In this document: one piece after another, positions 8,677 through 51,956 of the stretch
How the letters are laid out: every line of letters starts with the position of its first letter
Position numbering within the stretch: position 1 is the stretch's first letter
Source: Thermodesulfobacteriota bacterium
Lineage (GTDB): Bacteria; Desulfobacterota; UBA8473
Assembly (NCBI GenBank): GCA_040757775.1
Contig: JBFLWQ010000007.1
Location: 1,728-65,727, forward strand
Reading direction: 5' to 3'
DNA length: 64,000 nucleotides
The notes under the pieces: generated by a model
The model's input: only the letters and a program-made list of their open reading frames with translations
What the model was told of the DNA's origin: nothing
Database searches by the model: none
Position numbers and translations under genes: made by a program

Positions 8677-8689
8677 GCGGTCATACTTA

Positions 8690-8719
8690 GGGACGTTGTT
8701 TCTAATTAATAAATTACTT
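8690..8719 (+). repeat. Copy 1 of a 26-30-bp motif (GGGACGTTGTTTCTAATTAATAAATTACTT)
   Basis: Begins 13 nt after the stop of 7750..8676. The 26-mer CGTTGTTTCTAATTAATAAATTACTT recurs exactly at 10603..10628, and an inverted 18-mer at 8851..8868. Confidence 0.7.
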
Positions 8720-8850
8720 GGCAGGCAGTCGGTTTTTATATAGAACCGTATCATGCTGCGACAAGCTACGGGCAGGTGGGCGTGAATACATCGCGGGTAT
8801 TACAAAGGCAATCGAGAGGGTTGAACAACGTTATGGCTATAAATATCATG

Positions 8851-8868
8851 AATAGAAACAACGTCCCC
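8851..8868 (-). repeat. Inverted copy (AATAGAAACAACGTCCCC) of the 5' part of the 8690 motif
   Basis: Reverse complement GGGGACGTTGTTTCTATT matches 8690..8704. Together with copy 1 it forms a potential ~180-bp hairpin/MITE-like unit. Confidence 0.6.
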
Positions 8869-8961
8869 AAAGGTTTCCTTTATATCAAGGCTAATCTGCT
8901 TGTCGATCATTGGTTAGATTTATAAAAATCTATTGAAGACCAATATAGGATTTCAACAGCT

Positions 8962-10570: not shown

Positions 10571-10597
10571 TTTTGACAAGCCAGCTAAACAATACTT

Positions 10598-10629
10598 GGG
10601 GGCGTTGTTTCTAATTAATAAATTACTTT
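10598..10629 (+). repeat. Copy 3 of the 26-30-bp motif (GGGGGCGTTGTTTCTAATTAATAAATTACTTT)
   Basis: Exact 26-mer shared with 8694..8719. Lies 28 nt after the stop of 9887..10570 and is followed by the tandem AATTCTGGGGAATTCTGGGGAC. Confidence 0.7.
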
Positions 10630-10722
10630 GCTGAAATTCTGGGGAATTCTGGGGACACAATACTTAATTATTAACAAGGGAGATTCGGCCTCTAACGTTA
10701 TTACAGTAAACCAATTTTCAAA

Positions 10723-12851: not shown

Positions 12852-13049
12852 CAGGCAGGCGTTTAGCTTTTACACAAGAAGATTGCGGTAGCCCGATATA
12901 AAGATTCATATACCCAGAGAAAGCTCATCCCCATCTTTCTTGAAAAACAAATCCCACCAAGAGGACAAAATCGCTAAAATGAAACTTACATGCCTCAAAG
13001 AGACACAAAGAATAAGTAAAATGTCTTTGCGAGGAGATCGCCATAGGCG

Positions 13050-13164
13050 AACAGCCCCTACAACAGCACACTTAAGTGTGCTGTTGTTAAGAATGGGATT
13101 GCTTAATCCGCCTCTGGCGGATTCGCAATGACAGGAATAGGTACATTTTCAAGTGAAAGAATCT
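13050..13164 (+). repeat. R-element copy 1: 26-bp perfect palindrome CAACAGCACACTTAAGTGTGCTGTTG (13061..13086) + hairpin AATCCGCC-TCTG-GGCGGATT + conserved leader running into the rsmG start
   Basis: About 85% identical over ~100 bp to 44196..44311, including the stretch AATGACAGGAATAGGT..ATTTTCAA(G/A)TGAAAGAA that carries the start codon. Confidence 0.75.
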
Positions 13165-13809
13165 ATAGAGGGAATCCTTTATAAAGGGGCAAATGCAATA
13201 AATGTCTCTTTGACCCCCAGGGAGATTGAACTATTTAAAACTTACCTGATGGAGCTAAAGAGGTGGAGTTCTAAAATAAATATTACCGCCATACACGATG
13301 ACATAGAAATTGTGGTCAAACATTTCATTGACTCTCTTTCCCCGTTGAACTATATACCCCAAAACTCCTCCTTGCTGGACATTGGTTCAGGAGGGGGGTT
13401 CCCAGGTATACCTTTGAAGATTGCAAATCCGTCTTTATCTGTTACTTTGCTCGATTCTACCCTGAAGAAGGTAAACTTCCAAAAACAAATAATAAGACTA
13501 CTACAACTGAATAATATTAAAGCAGTGCATGGAAGGGCCGAAGATAAAAGCTCCTACAGAAAAACGGATTCACCTTTTGACGTGGTTATTTCAAGGGCAT
13601 TTTCAGGTTTAGGGAAATTTTTAGCTATAGGAGAACCCTATTTAAAGAGAGACGGGCTCCTGATAGCTATGCGTGGAAGGGGGGCAAAAAGAGAACTGGC
13701 TGTAAATGAAGAGGTGTTGACATGTCTGAGGCTAAAGCTTGTTAACATAGTTGAATTTAACTTGCCGTACTTAAATGAAAAGAGAAAGCTTATCGTACTT
13801 ACTAAATAG
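13153..13809 (+). CDS. rsmG: 16S rRNA (guanine527-N7)-methyltransferase RsmG
   Basis: GidB family: ...LKRWSSKINITAI..., SAM motif LLDIGSGGGFPGIPL. GTG start lies inside the R-element. Confidence 0.9.
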   Translation: MKESIEGILYKGANAINVSLTPREIELFKTYLMELKRWSSKINITAIHDDIEIVVKHFIDSLSPLNYIPQNSSLLDIGSGGGFPGIPLKIANPSLSVTLLDSTLKKVNFQKQIIRLLQLNNIKAVHGRAEDKSSYRKTDSPFDVVISRAFSGLGKFLAIGEPYLKRDGLLIAMRGRGAKRELAVNEEVLTCLRLKLVNIVEFNLPYLNEKRKLIVLTK

Positions 13810-14017
13810 TTCATCCTGAAAAATTCCCTTTTCCGCTCTCTGGTGCAGGTTTTTTGACCCATCTATGACTTGCTCCAGGCATTTTCAGGAACTCTCCGCC
13901 TTTAGCGGATCAAACACCTGAAAATGCTTATCTTCCGCTTTATCAAGATGGGTACCCCAAAAATCCTGCTCATGTTTGCTCCAAAAGAAATTTTTCATTT
14001 TTCAGGGTGGACTAAAT
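13803..14017 (-). mobile_element. MITE-like element copy A (~215 bp) with ~16-bp terminal inverted repeats AGTTCAYCCTGAAAAA / TTTTTCAGGGTGGACT and flanking ACTAAATA
   Basis: Reverse complement is ~85% identical over its length to 51739..51956. Inserted exactly at the rsmG stop codon. No conserved ORF. Confidence 0.65.
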
Positions 14018-14138
14018 ACTCTATTGAAGACTCACCTGTCTGCTAAGAATATAATCTTCCAGTATATAATTTCCCTACATTTTTATAGCGTTTCAGCCAC
14101 TTTAGAAAAGGCATTCAGGTGATCTCTAAAAAGCAAAA

Positions 14139-14244: not shown

Positions 14245-15006
14245 ATGAGAAAAATTATCTGTATAGCCAATCAAAAAGGTGGAGTCGGCAAAACCACTAC
14301 AGCCGTTAACCTGGCTGCTTCTCTTGCTGTGGCTGAAAAGCAGACTCTTTTGGTCGATATAGACCCTCAAGGAAACGCTTCTAGCGGGGTCGGTCTTAAC
14401 AAAGATGAGATTAAAGAGAATATCTATCATGCCCTTATGGAAGATAAGGATGTTGAGGATGTCATAAAAAAGACAGAATTGACTTTCCTCGATGTATTAC
14501 CCTCAAATATTGATCTTACAGGAGCTGAGATCGAACTGGTCAACCTCCCTTCAAGGGAGTTAAGACTCTGTAAGATCATTCAAAAAATAGAAAATAGGTA
14601 CGATTATATTCTCATTGACTGCCCTCCGTCCCTGGGTTTGCTGACTCTCAATTCTCTTGCGGCGGCTGACTCGATACTAATGCCTGTTCAGTGTGAATAC
14701 TATGCCCTGGAAGGCTTAAGCAGGCTTTTGAGGACGGTGCAGCTGGTTAAAAAACGTTTAAATCCCAGGCTGGAAATCGAAGGATTCCTATTGACTATGT
14801 TTGATAACCGGAATAATCTCTCTCAACAGGTTGCCGAAGAAGTAAGAACACACTTCAAGAATAAGGTCTTTAATGTCATTATACCAAGAAATGTAAAGTT
14901 GGCTGAATGCCCAAGTTTTGGTAAACCAATTTTAATCTATGATATAAACTGTAAGGGGGCAAGGAGCTATTTACAATTGGCAGAAGAAATTATGATGGCT
15001 TTGTAA
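14245..15006 (+). CDS. parA: Chromosome partitioning ATPase ParA/Soj
   Basis: Deviant Walker A KGGVGKTT; 253 aa; followed by parB. Confidence 0.95.
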
Positions 15007-15054
15007 AAAGTCCATCTGCTGCGTTGTGCTGCATCCTTCGTTATTGCGGCGTAC

Positions 15055-15092
15055 CCCTAAGTAGGGGCACGGTGACCGTGCCCCTACTTCTC
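15055..15092. repeat. GC-rich perfect hairpin AGTAGGGGCACGG-TGAC-CCGTGCCCCTACT (REP-like) in the parA-parB spacer
   Basis: 13-bp perfect stem read directly from the unusually long (~185 bp) parA-parB intergenic region. Confidence 0.5.
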
Positions 15093-15190
15093 AGGATTTG
15101 CACACCTTGCATCTGGAGCTTTTTACTTTGCCATCCCAATTTTGACTTTTTACGAGTTCATCAAATTATGAATAACGGAAGGACGAAGTA

Positions 15191-16042: not shown

Positions 16043-16202
16043 CCCCATAATTACCAAACTCTAACTTCAGTGTAGGTTCCTTGACACAAGCCATGAGCAA
16101 CAATCCGCTCAGGGCTTTCCGGAGTTTAATTCAAGGTTTTTATACCATATGTAGTATTTTAATTTACTTTTACTACATTATGTTGTAAACTAGAAAATGT
16201 TA

Positions 16203-18680
<2,478 letters not shown>

Positions 18681-29707: not shown

Positions 29708-29938
29708 TTATTTCCCTTTCTCTGCTGGAGCAGGAGCCTGTTCTGCTGGAGCAGGAGCCTGTTCTGCTGGAGCAGGGGCCTGTTCTGCTGGAGCAGGAGC
29801 TGGAGTCACTTGTTCCGTTGGTGCCCCCGCTTCCTCGGCCGGTTTTCCCTTGCATCCAATAGTAGATACTGTCAGGCCAAGGACAAAGAAAAAGCAAACC
29901 AAAAGATAACCTAATTTCCTCATCGTTTTCACCTCCAT
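29708..29938 (-). CDS. Small lipoprotein with (PAPAEQA)n tandem repeats
   Basis: Signal peptide with lipobox ...STIGC. Three 21-bp DNA repeats (29721..29800) encode AEQAPAP x3. Confidence 0.55.
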   Translation of the reverse strand: MEVKTMRKLGYLLVCFFFVLGLTVSTIGCKGKPAEEAGAPTEQVTPAPAPAEQAPAPAEQAPAPAEQAPAPAEKGK

Positions 29939-43168: not shown

Positions 43169-43230
43169 ACTGTTATATCGGTCATTAGGCATTTACAAAT
43201 TGAAATAGACACAGGTAGAAGGAGGATCAC

Positions 43231-43326
43231 ATGGCAATAGTTGAGGTAAGCATTGTCCCCATTGCTGTCTCTAATACCAGCCTTGGTGAATATGTGGCAA
43301 ATGCCTTAAAGGATTTTAGGAAATGA
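43231..43326 (+). pseudogene. Duplicated 5' fragment (31 codons) of the MTH1187/YkoF-family gene
   Basis: MAIVEVSIVPIAVSNTSLGEYVANALK..; ~85% nucleotide identity to the start of 43867..44166. Strong RBS GAAGGAGG. Confidence 0.6.
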
Positions 43327-43841
43327 CCAAAGCAATTAAGAAAGAACCCTATTCAACCCTCATCACCGACCTCGCCTCTCTTATTGAGCAGGGGCGCAAG
43401 GTTGCGGTACAGTACGTAAATACCGCTCTGGTTAGTACTTATTGGCTAATGGGCAGAAGGATTGTAGAGTATGAACAGAAGGGGAAAGAACGAGCGGAAT
43501 ATGGTGAGGCTCTCCTAAAGAAATTGTCTATTGATTTGACTCATCGGTTCGGTAAGGGTTGGGGATTAACTAATTTGAAAACCTTCCGCCAGTTTTACCT
43601 TACCTATTCGGGTGTTATTCAAAAAAGTCATACAGTGTGTGACCAATCGATTTCTGCATTAACCGATGAAAAAAGCCACACAGTGTGTGGCGAATTGCAG
43701 CCAGTTCCCCAGACAGGACATGAAATTTCCGAGACACTGGTTCGGGAATTACCTCTATCTTGGTCTAACTACCGTTTGCTTATTCGTCTTGATGAACCAT
43801 TCAAACGAGAATTCTATGAGGCGGAGTGCATAAGAATTTAG
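43323..43841 (+). pseudogene. N-terminal fragment of a YhcG/DUF1016-family PD-(D/E)xK nuclease gene (nuclease domain missing)
   Basis: MTKAIKKEPYSTLITDLASLIEQGRKVAVQYVNTALVSTYWLMGRRIVEYEQKGKERAEYGEALLKKLSIDLTHRFGKGW...FYEAECIRI matches the DUF1016 N-domain and stops where the nuclease domain should begin. Internal 46-bp tandem duplication around the 15-bp palindrome CCACACAGTGTGTGG. Confidence 0.5.
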
Positions 43842-43866
43842 AAAAGCTGAGGAAAAGGAGAGTCAG

Positions 43867-44166
43867 ATGGCAATAGTTGAGGTAAGTATAGTGCCTATTG
43901 GTGTACCGAATACCAGCCTTAGTGAATATGTGGCAAATGCCCTAAAGGTACTTAAAAATTCTGGACTTAAATACGATTTGACCTCCATGGGCACCATCAT
44001 CGAAGGAGAGCTTGAGAGGATTCTCAGCATAATCAGAGAGATGCACGAAACCCCTTTTAAAAAGGGCGTTATGCGTGTGGTTACAACAGTAAAAATCGAC
44101 GACAGAAGGGATAAACCCGCTACCTCCGAAACAAAGGTGGAATCTGTAGTTAAGAAGATGGGATGA
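43867..44166 (+). CDS. MTH1187/YkoF-family (DUF77) protein
   Basis: 99 aa: MAIVEVSIVPIG...GTIIEGELERILSIIREMHE...RVVTTVKIDDRRDK is typical of the family. Confidence 0.8.
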   Translation: MAIVEVSIVPIGVPNTSLSEYVANALKVLKNSGLKYDLTSMGTIIEGELERILSIIREMHETPFKKGVMRVVTTVKIDDRRDKPATSETKVESVVKKMG

Positions 44167-44195
44167 GCAGGGGAAGAATCAATGAAACCCGCGAG

Positions 44196-44311
44196 CGACC
44201 CCTTCAGCAGCACACTTAAGTGTGCTGTTAAAAAGGATGGGATTGCTTTGCCTGCCTGTGGCGGGCTCGTAATGACAGGAATAGGTGTATTTTCAAATGA
44301 AAGAAGCGATG
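44196..44311 (+). repeat. R-element copy 2: 20-bp perfect palindrome CAGCACACTTAAGTGTGCTG (44208..44227) + hairpin GCCTGCC-TGTG-GCGGGC + conserved leader running into the amrS start
   Basis: Homologous to 13050..13164. The hairpin arms carry compensatory changes relative to copy 1. Confidence 0.75.
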
Positions 44312-45310
44312 TTGTATGATAAATTAAGAGACGGAAAGGTTAAGTGCAACCTGTGCAATCATAGATGCGCCATTGCTCCCTTAAAGAGGGGGGTATGTGG
44401 TGTGCGGGAGAACAGGGAAGGGATTCTCTATTCTCTTGTCTACAATAAGGCTATTTCAAGAAACATAGACCCTATAGAAAAGAAGCCTATCTTTCATCTC
44501 TTTCCCGGCTCGAAATCCTTCTCAGTAGCCACCGCAGGATGTAATTTCAAGTGTCTACACTGTCAGAATTCGGATATTTCCCAGATGCCCATAGATCAGG
44601 ACCGAATTCTTGGCAGAGATTTTTTGCCCAAAGAGATCGTCTCTGAAGCCTTACAACACAAATGTAAAAGCATCTCATATACTTATACAGAACCCACCAT
44701 ATTCTTTGAATACGCTTACGATACTGCTGAGTTGGCTCATAAACAGGGGATAAAAAATGTGTTTGTTACCAATGGTTATATGACCAAAGAGGCGCTTCAT
44801 ACTATAAGACCATATCTGGATGCAGCGAATGTGGACCTTAAGGCATTTTCTGATGATTTCTATAAAGAGATTTGTGGTGCCAAACTGAACTCTGTGCTCG
44901 ATTCCATAAGGACGTTGAAGGAGATGAGGGTTTGGATCGAGATTACCACCCTGATAATACCCACATTGAACGACGGTGAAGAGGAGCTTAAGGGTATTGC
45001 AGAATTTATCAGGGAAGTAGGGGAAGACATACCCTGGCATGTAAGTGCCTTCCATCCTACCTATAGGTTGCTTGACCGACCAAGAACATCTGCAAAAATG
45101 CTTCACAGGGCAAGGGAGATAGGCATGGAGGTTGGCTTAAGGTATGTCTATTGTGGTAACATTCCTGGAGATGAAGGGGAAAATACCTATTGTTATAACT
45201 GCAAGAAATTGCTGATACAAAGATATGGATACCAGATATTACAGAACAGAGTTAAGGATGGTCTCTGTCCGGATTGTGGGGTAAAGGTCGATGGAATTGG
45301 TTTTGGATAA
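44297..45310 (+). CDS. amrS: AmmeMemoRadiSam-system radical SAM enzyme
   Basis: N-terminal Cys cluster (CNLCNHRCAIAPLKRGVCGVR) plus radical SAM CNFKCLHCQN. The start region is donated by the R-element. Confidence 0.8.
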   Translation: MKEAMLYDKLRDGKVKCNLCNHRCAIAPLKRGVCGVRENREGILYSLVYNKAISRNIDPIEKKPIFHLFPGSKSFSVATAGCNFKCLHCQNSDISQMPIDQDRILGRDFLPKEIVSEALQHKCKSISYTYTEPTIFFEYAYDTAELAHKQGIKNVFVTNGYMTKEALHTIRPYLDAANVDLKAFSDDFYKEICGAKLNSVLDSIRTLKEMRVWIEITTLIIPTLNDGEEELKGIAEFIREVGEDIPWHVSAFHPTYRLLDRPRTSAKMLHRAREIGMEVGLRYVYCGNIPGDEGENTYCYNCKKLLIQRYGYQILQNRVKDGLCPDCGVKVDGIGFG

Positions 45311-48195: not shown

Positions 48196-48224
48196 AAATA
48201 GGGAGTAAGTCAAACCTGAAATGA

Positions 48225-48332
48225 GAGCTTTGAAAAACTTCTGCTATGTCATTTCGGCTCCCTCGCTTGTCATTCCGAATCCGCCTCTGGCGGATGAGGA
48301 ATCTTGTTATTTGAGTAGATTTTCAAAGCTCT
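48225..48332 (-). repeat. R-related 108-bp element with 13-bp terminal inverted repeats (AGAGCTTTGAAAA / TTTTCAAAGCTCT) around the hairpin GAATCCGCC-TCTG-GGCGGAT
   Basis: Its central hairpin is the same as in R copy 1 (13050..13164). Sits in the mlaE-mlaF spacer. Confidence 0.6.
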
Positions 48333-48360
48333 TCTGAAAGGAGCTAGTAAGCAGGCTGAA

Positions 48361-49167: not shown

Positions 49168-50217
49168 ATGAAGAAGATGTCCACTGAAATAAAGGTAGGT
49201 GTGTTCGTGGTACTGGGAATACTTGTCCTTGCCTACATGACTGTAAATATAGAGAAGATAAGGATTGGCAGGGCGGTGGGATATAGAGTGTATACAAAGC
49301 TGGACTCTGCCTCAGGGTTGGTTAAGAATTCACCTGTCAGGATTGCAGGCGTTGAAGTAGGCAGGGTAGAAAACATTGCCCTCGATGCTGGAAAGGCAAA
49401 GGTGACCTTACGTCTCCCCTTTCAGGTAACCCTGCCCGTTGATTCTCTGGTTTATGTGAAATCAGAGGGACTCTTAGGCGAAAAGTATATCGAGATTCAA
49501 CCAGGTTCGTCTAAAGATGTATTTGCCCGGCAAAATGCTGAAATCAGGCAGGGGGCATCTCAGGTAGACATGGATCAGATATTTGCTCAAGTAAACTCTG
49601 TTGCCACAGATATTAAAGGAGTAACTGCCTCATTAAACAGGGTATTAGGGGGGCAAGAAGGCGAACAGACCTTGAGAAAGACCTTTGAAAATATTAAAGA
49701 GGTAACCAATGAGTTGAATATAACAGTGAAGCAAAATAGAGAAAAATTTAGTACTATTATGAATAATTTTGAAAAACTCAGCGGTAACCTGGTCGGGGTA
49801 TCTGCCAAGGCTGGAGATGCCTTTAACACTATAGACAGGGTCGCAAAGAAGATCGACAATGGGGAGGGAACCCTGGGTAAACTGGTGGCGGATAAAACTC
49901 TATATGACCAGTCCAAAGGTGCCATGGCAAGCCTTAACAATATAGTCAAAAAGATTGAAAAGGGGGAGGGAACTCTGGGTAAACTGGTGGCGGATAAAAC
50001 TCTATATGACCAGTCCAAAGGTGCCATGACAAGCCTTAACAATATAGCCAAAAAGGTTGAAAAGGGGGAGGGAACCCTGGGCAAATTGACTACTGACGAG
50101 ACCCTTTATACTGAGACAAAGAGTGCCCTAAAGAAGGTTAATAAGGCTGCCGGAGGGTTACAGGAGCAAACTCCTATAACTGTGTTGGGGACTGTTTTAG
50201 GTACTGTTTTGAAATAG
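49168..50217 (+). CDS. mlaD: MCE-domain protein MlaD with three ~28-aa C-terminal tandem repeats
   Basis: N-terminal TM + MCE domain. Three copies of GEGTLGKL(V/T)ADKTLYDQSKGAM.SLNNI.KK(I/V)EK encoded by ~84-bp DNA repeats at about 49850..50130. Confidence 0.8.
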   Translation: MKKMSTEIKVGVFVVLGILVLAYMTVNIEKIRIGRAVGYRVYTKLDSASGLVKNSPVRIAGVEVGRVENIALDAGKAKVTLRLPFQVTLPVDSLVYVKSEGLLGEKYIEIQPGSSKDVFARQNAEIRQGASQVDMDQIFAQVNSVATDIKGVTASLNRVLGGQEGEQTLRKTFENIKEVTNELNITVKQNREKFSTIMNNFEKLSGNLVGVSAKAGDAFNTIDRVAKKIDNGEGTLGKLVADKTLYDQSKGAMASLNNIVKKIEKGEGTLGKLVADKTLYDQSKGAMTSLNNIAKKVEKGEGTLGKLTTDETLYTETKSALKKVNKAAGGLQEQTPITVLGTVLGTVLK

Positions 50218-50240: not shown

Positions 50241-51740
50241 ATGAAGAGAACTATTGTCTTTATAATTACCCTTTTTCTCTTGATTCTTGCCTCCGGATGT
50301 GCCACTTCTCTTACAAACAACCGCAGATTGAATATGGAACCTTTATTCAATTATGACAGGGACACAGAGACAGAAGCATCTGAATTGGATGCTCTTGGTC
50401 CCCTTTTTACCTTTCAGTCTAAACCGAAGGAAAAAGAATACGGGTTTAGGCCCTTTTTTTATGTGAGGAAAAACGAAGATGACCATTTTAAGGAGGTAGA
50501 GTTCCTATACCCGCTTGGCAGGTACAGAAAAACAGACAAAGAAAGGGTTTCTCAGTTTGTTCCCTTTTTTTCTTCTCACAAGGATCTAACCGAAGACTCC
50601 AAGAAGCCCTCTGATTTCGGGTTCTTCCCTGTCTTCTGGGGAAAAGATGAGGAAGATAAGAGCTATTGGGGGGTTTTCCCTATATACGGACGGCTAAACC
50701 ACAGGTTTGGAAAGGATCAGATCCGCTTCGTTCTCTGGCCTGTGTATTCTGATTCTAAAGAGGACGATTCATGGACATATAACGTCCTTTGGCCAATCTT
50801 TTCTTATACCACAGGGGAAGGCAAAAGGGGGTTTAGAGTATGGCCTCTTTACGGACATGAAGAAAAAACGGGTGAATATTCAAAGAATTTCGCATTATGG
50901 CCTATATTCTTCTTTCAAAAAACTGACATGGATACTGACAACCCCCAAAGGTTTACGGCAGTTTTCCCGCTGTTTGCAGATACCAGCTCACCACAAAAGG
51001 ACTCAAGGACATTTCTTTGGCCTTTTTTCAACTATACCAATGACAAAGCGAATAATTATAAACAATGGGATATGCCCTGGCCAATCTTCCATTACAGCAA
51101 AGGAAAAGAAATTAAAAGCTTTAGATTGTTTCCCCTTTATGGATACAAGACAAGACCTGATTCAAAGACCCGTTTCTTTCTATGGCCATTATACACATAT
51201 GACAAAGAAATTCTTGAAGACCACGAGGACACAACTTATAGATTCCTGTTAATCAATAAATATCAAAGAATGGTATGGAAAGGGAATCTTAAGGACGCAA
51301 AATCCGTAAGAATATGGCCTATATTCTATTATAATAGAAAACAAGATGGCTCTGTTAAATTCTCCTTCCCGGAGATTATCCCCTTAGAGGATGAGGGATT
51401 TGAAAGAAACTGGGCACCACTTTTCAGGCTTTACCAATATAAGGGAGATGCCGAGGGTAATATGGAATCAAAATTCTTCTGGGGGCTTTACAGACACAAA
51501 AAGATGGATTCAAAAGAGTTTTTTGAGCTATCTTTTCTATTATCATATGAAAAAGAGAAAAATAGAATGTGCTTTTCTGTGTTAAAGGGGCTTTTTGAAT
51601 ACCAACAGGAAAACGGTGTGAATTCTATCAGGCTCCTTTATCTTCCTCGTTTAATAAAATGGGAATCCGGCGAAGAGACCCAGAATCAGCCGGTCTTGCC
51701 AGCCTCAAGAAGATTGGGAGAGAGCTGGGTTTATGACTAA
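50241..51740 (+). CDS. Lipoprotein built from ~14 degenerate ~20-25-aa repeats centred on a (L/V)WP(I/L)(F/Y) motif
   Basis: Lipobox ...LILASGC. Recurrent FVLWPVY, NVLWPIF, FALWPIF, FLWPFF, WPIFHY, FLWPLY, IWPIF etc. Confidence 0.6.
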   Translation: MKRTIVFIITLFLLILASGCATSLTNNRRLNMEPLFNYDRDTETEASELDALGPLFTFQSKPKEKEYGFRPFFYVRKNEDDHFKEVEFLYPLGRYRKTDKERVSQFVPFFSSHKDLTEDSKKPSDFGFFPVFWGKDEEDKSYWGVFPIYGRLNHRFGKDQIRFVLWPVYSDSKEDDSWTYNVLWPIFSYTTGEGKRGFRVWPLYGHEEKTGEYSKNFALWPIFFFQKTDMDTDNPQRFTAVFPLFADTSSPQKDSRTFLWPFFNYTNDKANNYKQWDMPWPIFHYSKGKEIKSFRLFPLYGYKTRPDSKTRFFLWPLYTYDKEILEDHEDTTYRFLLINKYQRMVWKGNLKDAKSVRIWPIFYYNRKQDGSVKFSFPEIIPLEDEGFERNWAPLFRLYQYKGDAEGNMESKFFWGLYRHKKMDSKEFFELSFLLSYEKEKNRMCFSVLKGLFEYQQENGVNSIRLLYLPRLIKWESGEETQNQPVLPASRRLGESWVYD

Positions 51741-51956
51741 ATAGTTCACCCTGAAAAACGAGAAGTTTCCTTTGGAGCGAACATGAGCAGGATTTTTGGG
51801 GTACCCATCTTGACGAAGCGGAAGATAAGTCAGCCTTTGGCGGATTTGACCCGCCAGAGGCGGGGAGTTCCTGAAAATGCCTGAAGCAAGTCTAGGATGG
51901 GTCAAAAAACCTGCGCGGGAGAGCGGAAAAGGGAATTCTTCAGAGTGGACTAAATA
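51739..51956 (+). mobile_element. MITE-like element copy B (~218 bp) with terminal inverted repeats AGTTCACCCTGAAAAA / TTCTTCAGAGTGGACT and flanking ACTAAATA
   Basis: ~85% identical to the reverse complement of 13803..14017. Inserted at the stop codon of the lipoprotein gene. Confidence 0.65.

Follow-up and report, generated by a model that had tools for sequence, protein, structure and literature searches.

Repeats of 120-180 bp that stand upstream of unrelated genes and carry a promoter, a ribosome-binding site (RBS) and an ATG are known as REP2 in Neisseria and as IR-A and IR-B in Borrelia, from primary reports by Parkhill (2000), Morelle (2003) and Dunn (1994) as reviewed by Delihas (2011; PMC3184786). 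REP2 has a mapped promoter and is present in 23-26 copies per genome, and its origin and spread were called an open question (PMC3184786). Here, we analyzed a repeated segment that directly precedes two unrelated genes, rsmG and the radical-SAM gene amrS, in a 64-kb stretch of DNA (the window, i.e. the whole stretch that was analyzed) from a Thermodesulfobacteriota metagenome-assembled genome (MAG). The original prediction for this DNA had described the segment as a portable leader cassette of ~100 bp which donates its structures, 5' untranslated region and first codons to both genes. We consider it likely that the segment represents one copy of a mobile element that is non-coding, non-autonomous and present in few copies, with a full length of ~168 bp plus a 5-bp junction repeat. 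Judged by position and content, the closest described kind are the Neisseria REP2 and Borrelia IR repeats, although the element is not a member of any named family. It shares with them internal stem-loops, the RBS and ATG of the downstream open reading frame (ORF), poor terminal inverted repeats (TIRs) and the opening of spurious ORFs, and five of seven copies have the arrangement typical of these repeats, a location directly upstream of an ORF together with its RBS and start codon. In contrast to REP2, the element has no promoter consensus and few copies per genome and resides in a different phylum, and it is likened to REP2 by description and not by sequence. A further difference is that the way in which the start codon joins the repeat can be followed here, from two empty sites and the invariant AATGAAA/TGAAA junction. 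The feature class is also not unprecedented: the segment fits small non-autonomous mobile repeats, and the REP2 and Borrelia IR repeats had already been described (PMC3184786).

The two copies in the window, termed A (rsmG) and B (amrS), and their junctions are the following (R, purine):

12979..12984, + strand: left junction repeat ATGAAA of copy A; the ancestral rsmG start and Lys codon, now upstream of the element (empty site in L018)
12985..13152, + strand: body of copy A, 168 bp, full length; first base C, last base G; aligned with copies W, V, Z and X
13153..13158, + strand: right junction repeat GTGAAA of copy A; the present rsmG start codon (rsmG, 13153-13809)
44182..44187, + strand: left junction repeat ATGAAA of copy B; the ancestral amrS start (empty sites in L023, L025, L027 and L028)
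44188..44296, + strand: body of copy B, 109 bp; palindrome at 44208-44227 and hairpin H3 at 44242-44273; without hairpin H0 and most of H1
44297..44302, + strand: right junction repeat ATGAAA of copy B; the present amrS start codon (amrS, 44297-45310)

For both genes, close relatives provide precise empty sites. At the rsmG site, locus L018, the RsmG of which is 87% identical, has a single cgctaagATGAAAGAATCT (wider context ...gaggacaaaatcgctaagATGAAAGAATCTATGGAGG), whereas the window reads cgctaaaATGAAA[168 bp]GTGAAAGAATCT (wider context ...gaggacaaaatcgctaaaATGAAA[168 bp]GTGAAAGAATCTATAGAGG). At the amrS site, four loci from three relatives (L023, L025 and L027/L028; protein identity 87-91%) read aatcaATGAAAGAAGCG, compared with aatcaATGAAA[109 bp]ATGAAAGAAGCG in the window. 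The relatives have a thiamine-binding-protein gene upstream and then, 17 nt after its stop, ATGAAAGAAGCGATG; the window has ...gaatcaATGAAA[109 bp]ATGAAAGAAGCGATG. Thus, the single ATGAAA of the empty sites is located exactly where the window carries ATGAAA, the element and RTGAAA. On the basis of these comparisons we conclude that both window copies are insertions and that the element is mobile, which agrees with the portability proposed in the original prediction. The contribution of the element to the genes is smaller than claimed. The RsmG N-terminus MKE(S) is kept in orthologues down to 69% identity, and the element-free protein of L018 also begins ATGAAAGAA, indicating that the Lys and Glu codons belong to the gene; in copies other than A and B the codons after RTGAAA differ from Glu. 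The start codon is likewise not wholly donated, since TGAAA repeats the target and the start is therefore largely a regenerated copy of the gene's own. What the element does provide is the whole leader next to the start codon, with the sole Shine-Dalgarno-like motif in it, and no less than the first base of that codon.

Comparison of the window with itself (repeat family D2) showed that 13047-13166 and 44191-44310 form a direct repeat with 82% identity without gaps; when gaps were allowed, blastn and nhmmer gave 80-84%. While the repetition of ~100-bp segments was thereby confirmed, copy A is actually longer and copy B carries an internal deletion. Alignment with copies from other genomes showed that copy A reaches ~70 nt farther upstream than the boundary previously set at 13050: its homology with the other copies spans 12985-13152, bordered by the junction hexamer repeats at 12979-12984 and 13153-13158, and the corresponding nhmmer match covers 12980-13158 (E 1.8e-50). 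The internally deleted copy B (44188-44296) retains the first three bases (CCC) and resumes within H1. Each copy has a palindrome as described, with CAGCACACTTAAGTGTGCTG (20 nt) matching exactly at 13064-13083 and 44208-44227 (chance expectation 0) and, as read from the sequence, a perfect palindrome over 28 bp in copy A (13060-13087). Towards the 3' end, the stretch AATGACAGGAATAGGT is exact in both copies and is followed by ATTTTCAA(G/A)TGAAAGAA. The GTG at 13153 is the earliest possible start of the rsmG ORF and the annotated start of an identical NCBI protein of 218 amino acids, and the ATG at 44297 is the start of an identical NCBI AmrS of 337 amino acids. Further diverged copies were not detected by nhmmer in the window or in any retrieved locus.

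A genome scan with the palindrome yielded four true homologues, and a metagenome scan with the 20-mer returned the same three loci of one species again and one chance match. As the element is frequently spanned by an ORF in the output of gene callers, the protein database was also searched with translations of such ORFs, and this added two copies that were not selected by palindrome. In total, the collection comprises eight copies, six of them detected via an exact palindrome match. They occupy seven sites of independent insertion, spread over four or more related genomes of Thermodesulfobacteriota. Pairwise identity among the copies is 67-90%. Their locations and the sequences into which the 3' RTGAAA leads are:

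Copy A, window: rsmG
Copies B and Y (orthologous), window and MAG CG_4_8_14_3_um_filter_43_13, respectively: amrS
Copy X, MAG CG_4_8_14_3_um_filter_43_13: gene for a 65-amino-acid LapA-like membrane protein
Copy W, JGI contig Ga0439197: response regulator gene (VKKILIVDDE)
Copy V, MAG SURF_34: U32 peptidase gene (VKRPELLAPAG)
Copy Z, MAG CG_4_8_14_3_um_filter_43_13: a 14-codon ORF only
Copy S, MAG SURF_34: a 3-codon ORF

Copy Y carries the same internal deletion as copy B, which indicates that these two insertions were inherited. No matches to the element were found in plasmids or viral contigs, and a literature search on the motif GTCATTGCGAG gave nothing relevant. Palindrome matches in Parcubacteria (after a tRNA) and in Auribacterota (near DnaA boxes) were discarded as unrelated to the element. 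In the Candidatus Auribacterota MAG, GTAGAGCACACTTAAGTGTGCTCTAC lies beside several DnaA-box-like TTATCCACA motifs on two contigs (L005 7061-7078 and L007 1813-1830); these sites may be an origin-region feature and have no relation to the element.

Both boundaries of the element are base-exact across the seven unrelated loci and its orientation relative to the target is constant. The 5' junction is AATGAAA followed by C in all six recognisable cases (AATGAAAC), and the 3' junction is RTGAAA in 7/7. In each of the six complete copies TGAAA flanks the element on both sides, and the empty sites have it a single time; its sequence is the same everywhere. The base before it is always A at the 5' junction. 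At the 3' junction, this position is occupied by G in copies A, W, V and Z, which belong to one lineage (84-89% identical), and by A in copies B, Y, S and X. As the 3' purine tracks the lineage of the element, the first base of the new start codon is attributed to the element. In the simplest reading of the aligned junctions, the element would end in a purine, only TGAAA would occur twice, be it through a 5-bp duplication or because it is a fixed core, and the target preference would be AATGAAA. Two other ways of placing the ends were rejected. If a duplication of 6-7 bp extended to the A of ATG, four independent A-to-G changes would be needed at one position in one lineage, and ends formed by TGAAA/TTTCA as an inverted repeat with a 2-bp duplication conflict with the 2-bp flanks, which disagree in five of the seven copies.

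The junctions also bear on the possibility that nothing mobile is involved and that the leader region together with the first codons was copied by segmental duplication or by gene conversion at ATGAAA microhomology. An identical junction motif at all sites is expected from microhomology-mediated recombination, and the low copy number points in the same direction. However, such copying would have had to hit the same two boundaries to the base and in a single orientation at seven unrelated loci in at least four genomes, flanking gene sequence was never carried along with the element, the two empty sites are clean and the element has an inverted-repeat architecture of its own. We hold this explanation to be very improbable.

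In five of the seven sites the 3' RTG starts a real gene, namely rsmG, amrS, the lapA-like gene, the response regulator gene and the U32 peptidase gene. To put this figure into context, the window contains 31 AATGAAA sites, 21 of which are intragenic, 5 at or near gene starts and 5 intergenic. Compared with all AATGAAA sites, the insertions are enriched at starts (P = 8e-4), as anticipated in the original prediction, but there is no enrichment when the comparison is made with the non-intragenic sites (P = 0.23). This indicates that the accumulation at gene starts is explained by the choice of target and the loss of intragenic insertions. Recognition of gene starts as such needs not be assumed, because the target motif and intragenic loss suffice.

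We propose that the element inserts in one orientation at the asymmetric target AATGAAA and leaves TGAAA at both junctions; its first base is C and its last base a purine. In this AT-rich lineage, genes commonly start with ATG-AAA (Met-Lys), so that many of the targets in non-coding sequence are start codons. Upon insertion at such a site, the gene's own ATGAAA and its RBS would be stranded upstream of the element, and a new (A/G)TG-AAA would be rebuilt at the 3' end of the element in frame with codon 3, with the element-internal GGAATAGGT located ~10 nt ahead of the new start. The gene would remain translatable, with as many as four hairpins (H0, H1, the H2 palindrome and H3) in its new leader. 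Intragenic insertions would be lost and the survivors would accumulate at gene starts. In copy A, two features are relevant for this model:

13134..13142, + strand: GGAATAGGT, the only Shine-Dalgarno-like motif before the new start, with AGGT 10 nt before GTG; kept in copies A, B, Y, S, W and V
12979..13131, + strand: residual upstream ORF (50 codons and a TGA stop) that begins at the old rsmG start and continues through the element

The first of these is the putative RBS, and the new RTG would be the start that is used. Four of the seven copies show a change of the start from ATG to GTG. In copies X and W, the TGA of the upstream gene overlaps the old ATG, from which it follows that a former ATGA-overlapping gene pair was split by the element. 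The residual ORF of copy A stops at the TGA 13129-13131, 21 nt before the new GTG, and that of copy B has 45 codons and stops 20 nt beyond the new ATG. Copy X has a frameshift and an early stop, and the stop positions differ in every copy. Given the broken frame in X and the differing stops, the through-element ORF was rejected as a coding sequence or conserved peptide gene, and the residual upstream ORF is probably not a gene. The element had also been described as a mobile promoter, and this was not substantiated: a consensus scan, which is a weak test, revealed no sigma-70-like promoter inside copies A or B. A T-run after the hairpins is absent from either copy. Judging from the sequence, transcription most likely reads through from upstream and, in the case of amrS, from the upstream gene of the same operon. 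For the genes that are hit, the outcome is that overlapping pairs are uncoupled, a short upstream ORF is left behind and the native ribosome-binding context is replaced. These effects bear on the annotation of gene starts in MAGs as well as on the expression of the genes concerned.

The hairpins of copy A are located as follows:

12993..13034, + strand: hairpin H0 (CCTC..AGAGACA / TGTCTTT..GAGG), in RNA and DNA folds; kept in copies A, W, V and Z
13038..13050, + strand: hairpin H1 (TCGCC-ATA-GGCGA), in RNA and DNA folds
13060..13087, + strand: hairpin H2, a perfect palindrome of 28 bp with CTTAAG in its middle; forms the centre of an imperfect inverted repeat of ~110 nt (13022-13132)
13098..13129, + strand: two-tier hairpin H3; outer stem ATTGC/GCAAT, inner stem AATCCGCC-TCT-GGCGGATT (13105-13123)

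The full element folds into these four hairpins with z-scores of -5.1 (RNA) and -6.1 (DNA) relative to shuffled sequence, and the nhmmer model matches its own reverse strand at 13132-13022 (E 3.5e-10). The two-tier form of H3 is kept in seven of the eight copies. Its inner stem is AATCCGCC-TCT-GGCGGATT in copy A and GCCTGCC-TGT-GGCGGGC in copy B, i.e. pairing is kept despite the change in sequence. RNAalifold missed H3 on the full alignment because loop lengths differ, and the pairs were therefore counted in a hand-registered alignment. Five of the seven inner pairs occur with at least two Watson-Crick pair types, so that the covariation noticed between A and B persists with more copies, albeit in only about three stem haplotypes. 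The notion that pairing is maintained by compensatory changes thus holds for two-sided changes in these five pairs, but copies A and B differ here in part through a module swap: the inner H3 hairpin of copy A is identical to a hairpin at 48278-48295 (the inner 17-mer corresponds to 48279-48295), which indicates module exchange and not stepwise compensation. In our own reading, would-be G-U wobble mismatches occur on both strands, and RNA and DNA structure are therefore not distinguished.

These findings were also considered in terms of a structured non-coding RNA gene or a riboswitch-like cis-regulator that resided upstream of the genes from the outset. Folds far more stable than those of shuffled sequence and the kept pairing of H3 would agree with such an origin. 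In contrast, Rfam contained no matching family at gathering score, with only chance-level matches at E up to 10, the orthologous sites in close relatives are free of the element, the downstream genes are unrelated and the occurrence of would-be G-U mismatches on both strands does not favour RNA over DNA. An ancestral RNA is accordingly the explanation in which we place hardly any confidence.

Several observations weigh against the interpretation as a mobile element. The TIRs are weak: CTTACATGC and the reverse complement of the 3' end CTTGAAAATGC agree at 9/11 positions with a 2-nt gap (own reading). The junction motif is invariant, so a duplication cannot be told from a recombination core. 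Two of the seven sites (Z and S) have no obvious gene start. Copies are few: the one MAG that was scanned whole contains three with the exact palindrome, and the ORF-based search gave four protein clusters. Neither an autonomous partner or transposase nor a recent or polymorphic insertion was seen, and with copies that are only 67-90% identical the activity of the element may be ancient. Finally, the orthologous copies B and Y are 90% identical (100/111 columns) as opposed to 69% (107/155) at the four-fold sites of the flanking genes (Fisher P = 4e-5), and such conservation above neutral sites is not predicted for a purely selfish relic. It hints at constraint and fits either an exapted leader under purifying selection or gene conversion between copies.

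The former would mean that the element was kept after insertion as a regulatory leader of the REP2 kind for control of the downstream gene and that the copies mark a small co-regulated set. Control could be exerted by a dimeric DNA-binding protein on the 20-28-bp palindrome, by RNA hairpins (RNase III processing, stability or RBS occlusion) or by coupling to translation of the residual ORF. Apart from the conservation of the B/Y pair, the location of 7 of its 11 differences in the H3 inner stem with pairing kept (own count from the alignment) is in line with this idea, as is the palindrome, which is perfect in six copies and has a single G-U-compatible change in V. Moreover, an intergenic stretch is only 78% identical between the window and an even closer relative, and Neisseria REP2 offers a precedent (PMC3184786). 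On the other hand, the promoter consensus is absent from the element and the downstream functions are unrelated (rRNA methylase, radical-SAM enzyme, membrane protein, response regulator and peptidase). The right arm of the palindrome has been lost from copy W, which still heads an intact gene, and copy B lacks H0 and H1. Since six of the eight copies were recovered through the exact palindrome itself, its conservation is partly due to ascertainment, and the 90% identity is also explicable by gene conversion, given that the H3 of copy A is identical to the hairpin of another element in the same genome. We regard a co-regulated set of exapted leaders as unlikely.

A bolder version of the mobile element proposal is that the target is itself a translation start, to which the element homes and at which its 3' end restores start and RBS, so that the 5' untranslated region is exchanged and the gene survives, and that the inserted copy is then kept under purifying selection as a structured leader. 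Re-initiation downstream of the residual ORF or a palindrome-binding protein might in that case play a part in the upkeep of the leader. We view this version as possible but rather doubtful. If true, it would be a mechanism for the origin and spread of REP2-type promoter-RBS-ATG repeats. The base-exact empty sites by themselves show how a dispersed repeat comes to contain the leader and start codon of unrelated genes, and they yield a model, open to testing, of how repeats like REP2 of Neisseria arose.

With regard to mobile repeats of other kinds, bacterial MITEs (miniature transposable elements with inverted repeats; for example Correia/CREE, Nezha, RUP and MITEAba12) have clear TIRs that match those of a parent insertion sequence (IS), and their target duplications are variable or very short (TA). 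MITEs can alter the expression of neighbouring genes. The element resembles them in that it is 109-168 bp long, non-coding, dispersed and strongly folding, occurs in filled and empty sites and is flanked by a short direct repeat. It differs by its weakly inverted termini, by a strong inverted repeat that is internal, and by the same 5-bp TGAAA within AATGAAA everywhere. Specifically, the Correia element has 26-bp TIRs and a TA duplication, whereas the junctions here are AATGAAA/RTGAAA. We know of no parent IS for the element. Hence, most but not all features that define MITEs are present. IS608 and ISDra2 of the IS200/IS605 family have no good TIRs, carry hairpins near their ends and insert in strict orientation 3' of a 4-5-nt target. 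The element is similar to palindrome-associated elements derived from this family with respect to fixed orientation and target, hairpins and the absence of good TIRs. However, the single-strand ('peel and paste') mechanism of IS200/IS605 makes no target duplication, while the same pentanucleotide stands at both junctions of the element. This fits only if the 3' cleavage site of the element is identical to the target. A Y1 transposase gene was seen neither in the window, of which the ORFs were listed without a protein-family search, nor in the retrieved loci. Taken together, a DDE-type element that duplicates 5 bp of its target would account for the junctions, and so would insertion in the manner of IS200/IS605, 3' of a fixed pentanucleotide; the transposase may be of either kind. 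REPINs are inverted REP doublets that are mobilised by RAYTs and present in tens to hundreds of extragenic copies without target specificity. The inner ~110 nt of the element are comparable in consisting of two inverted units, each 'GTCWTTGCGA plus GC-rich hairpin', around the palindrome, and could form one long hairpin. The inserted unit is nevertheless larger than a doublet, target-specific and low-copy where REPINs are high-copy. An integron attC site or gene cassette was rejected because the sequence lacks the GTTRRRY/RYYYAAC core and there is no array.

The window contains further small elements. The original prediction had placed a third, inverted relative before mlaF at 48225-48332, but this sequence belongs to another family:

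48222..48334, strand not assigned: different small element with terminal inverted repeats (T)GAGAGCTTTGAAAA; second member at L018 2501-2720, downstream of rsmG

It has TIRs of its own, and only a ~35-nt hairpin module, GTCATTCCGAATCCGCCTCTGGCGGATGAGGAATC (GTCATTSCGA-hairpin-GSAATC), is common to it and the H3 of copy A. The mlaE-mlaF spacer of relative L027 carries other repeats and is unusable as an empty site for the 48.2-kb element. Members of a third small-element family are located at 13799-14021 and, inverted, at 51735-51952, with a solo end at 16200-16228. This family is ~215 bp long and has terminal repeats TAAATAGTTCAYCCTGAAAAA and a central GC-rich hairpin. The sequence GCCTGCCTGTGG, the left arm and loop of the inner H3 of copy B (44249-44266), is also found in a hairpin at 16226-16250, just upstream of gyrB and next to the solo end of the third family. 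It seems that different small elements of the genome swap GC-rich hairpin modules.

In the window, the order of genes around rsmG is arsM-like methyltransferase gene, rsmG, parA, parB, gyrB. The third-family copy at 13.8 kb is situated within the 3' end of rsmG, the stop codon of which it provides. Here, RsmG ends with ...LIVLTK*, whereas the orthologues continue with ...SRYSAPDSSVR*, and the ancestral tail and stop are still visible at ~14019-14048. With the leader element at the 5' end and the third-family copy at the 3' end, rsmG thus has a small element at both ends, a case which illustrates that small repeats can remodel gene ends without destroying genes. In L018, the spacer upstream of rsmG (~1570-1790) carries a separate ~110-bp insertion with GAGGAC on both flanks, which accounts for the long N-terminal extension called in the RsmG homologue P0004. 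The spacer upstream of rsmG appears to be a hot spot for small insertions.

The parA-parB spacer (14993-15155) contains two repeat units of ~62-74 nt from another dispersed family, which match at 85-86% downstream of amrS and elsewhere in a related MAG (L002 2093-2166; L013 4645-4706 and 4730-4790). In the vicinity of amrS, 43219-43312 and 43855-43948 are 86% identical (family D4): the RBS and first ~27 codons (MAIVEVSIVPI...) of the thiamine-binding-protein gene are duplicated 636 bp upstream, before the ORF 43323-43841. Two tandem repeats (families D1 and D3) were also recorded, three 102-nt units (100/93/62%) at 49846-50151 within the ORF 49168-50217, and, in coding sequence at 29721-29821, four overlapping copies of a 38-nt repeat with 21-nt spacing (TCTGCTGGAGCAGGAGCCTGT). 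Finally, a motif of ~30-40 nt, TTAGGGACGTTGTTTCTAATTAATAAATT, occurs twice in direct and once in inverted orientation within 2 kb (8683-8722, 8842-8870 and 10592-10631) and may be an operator or a repeat.

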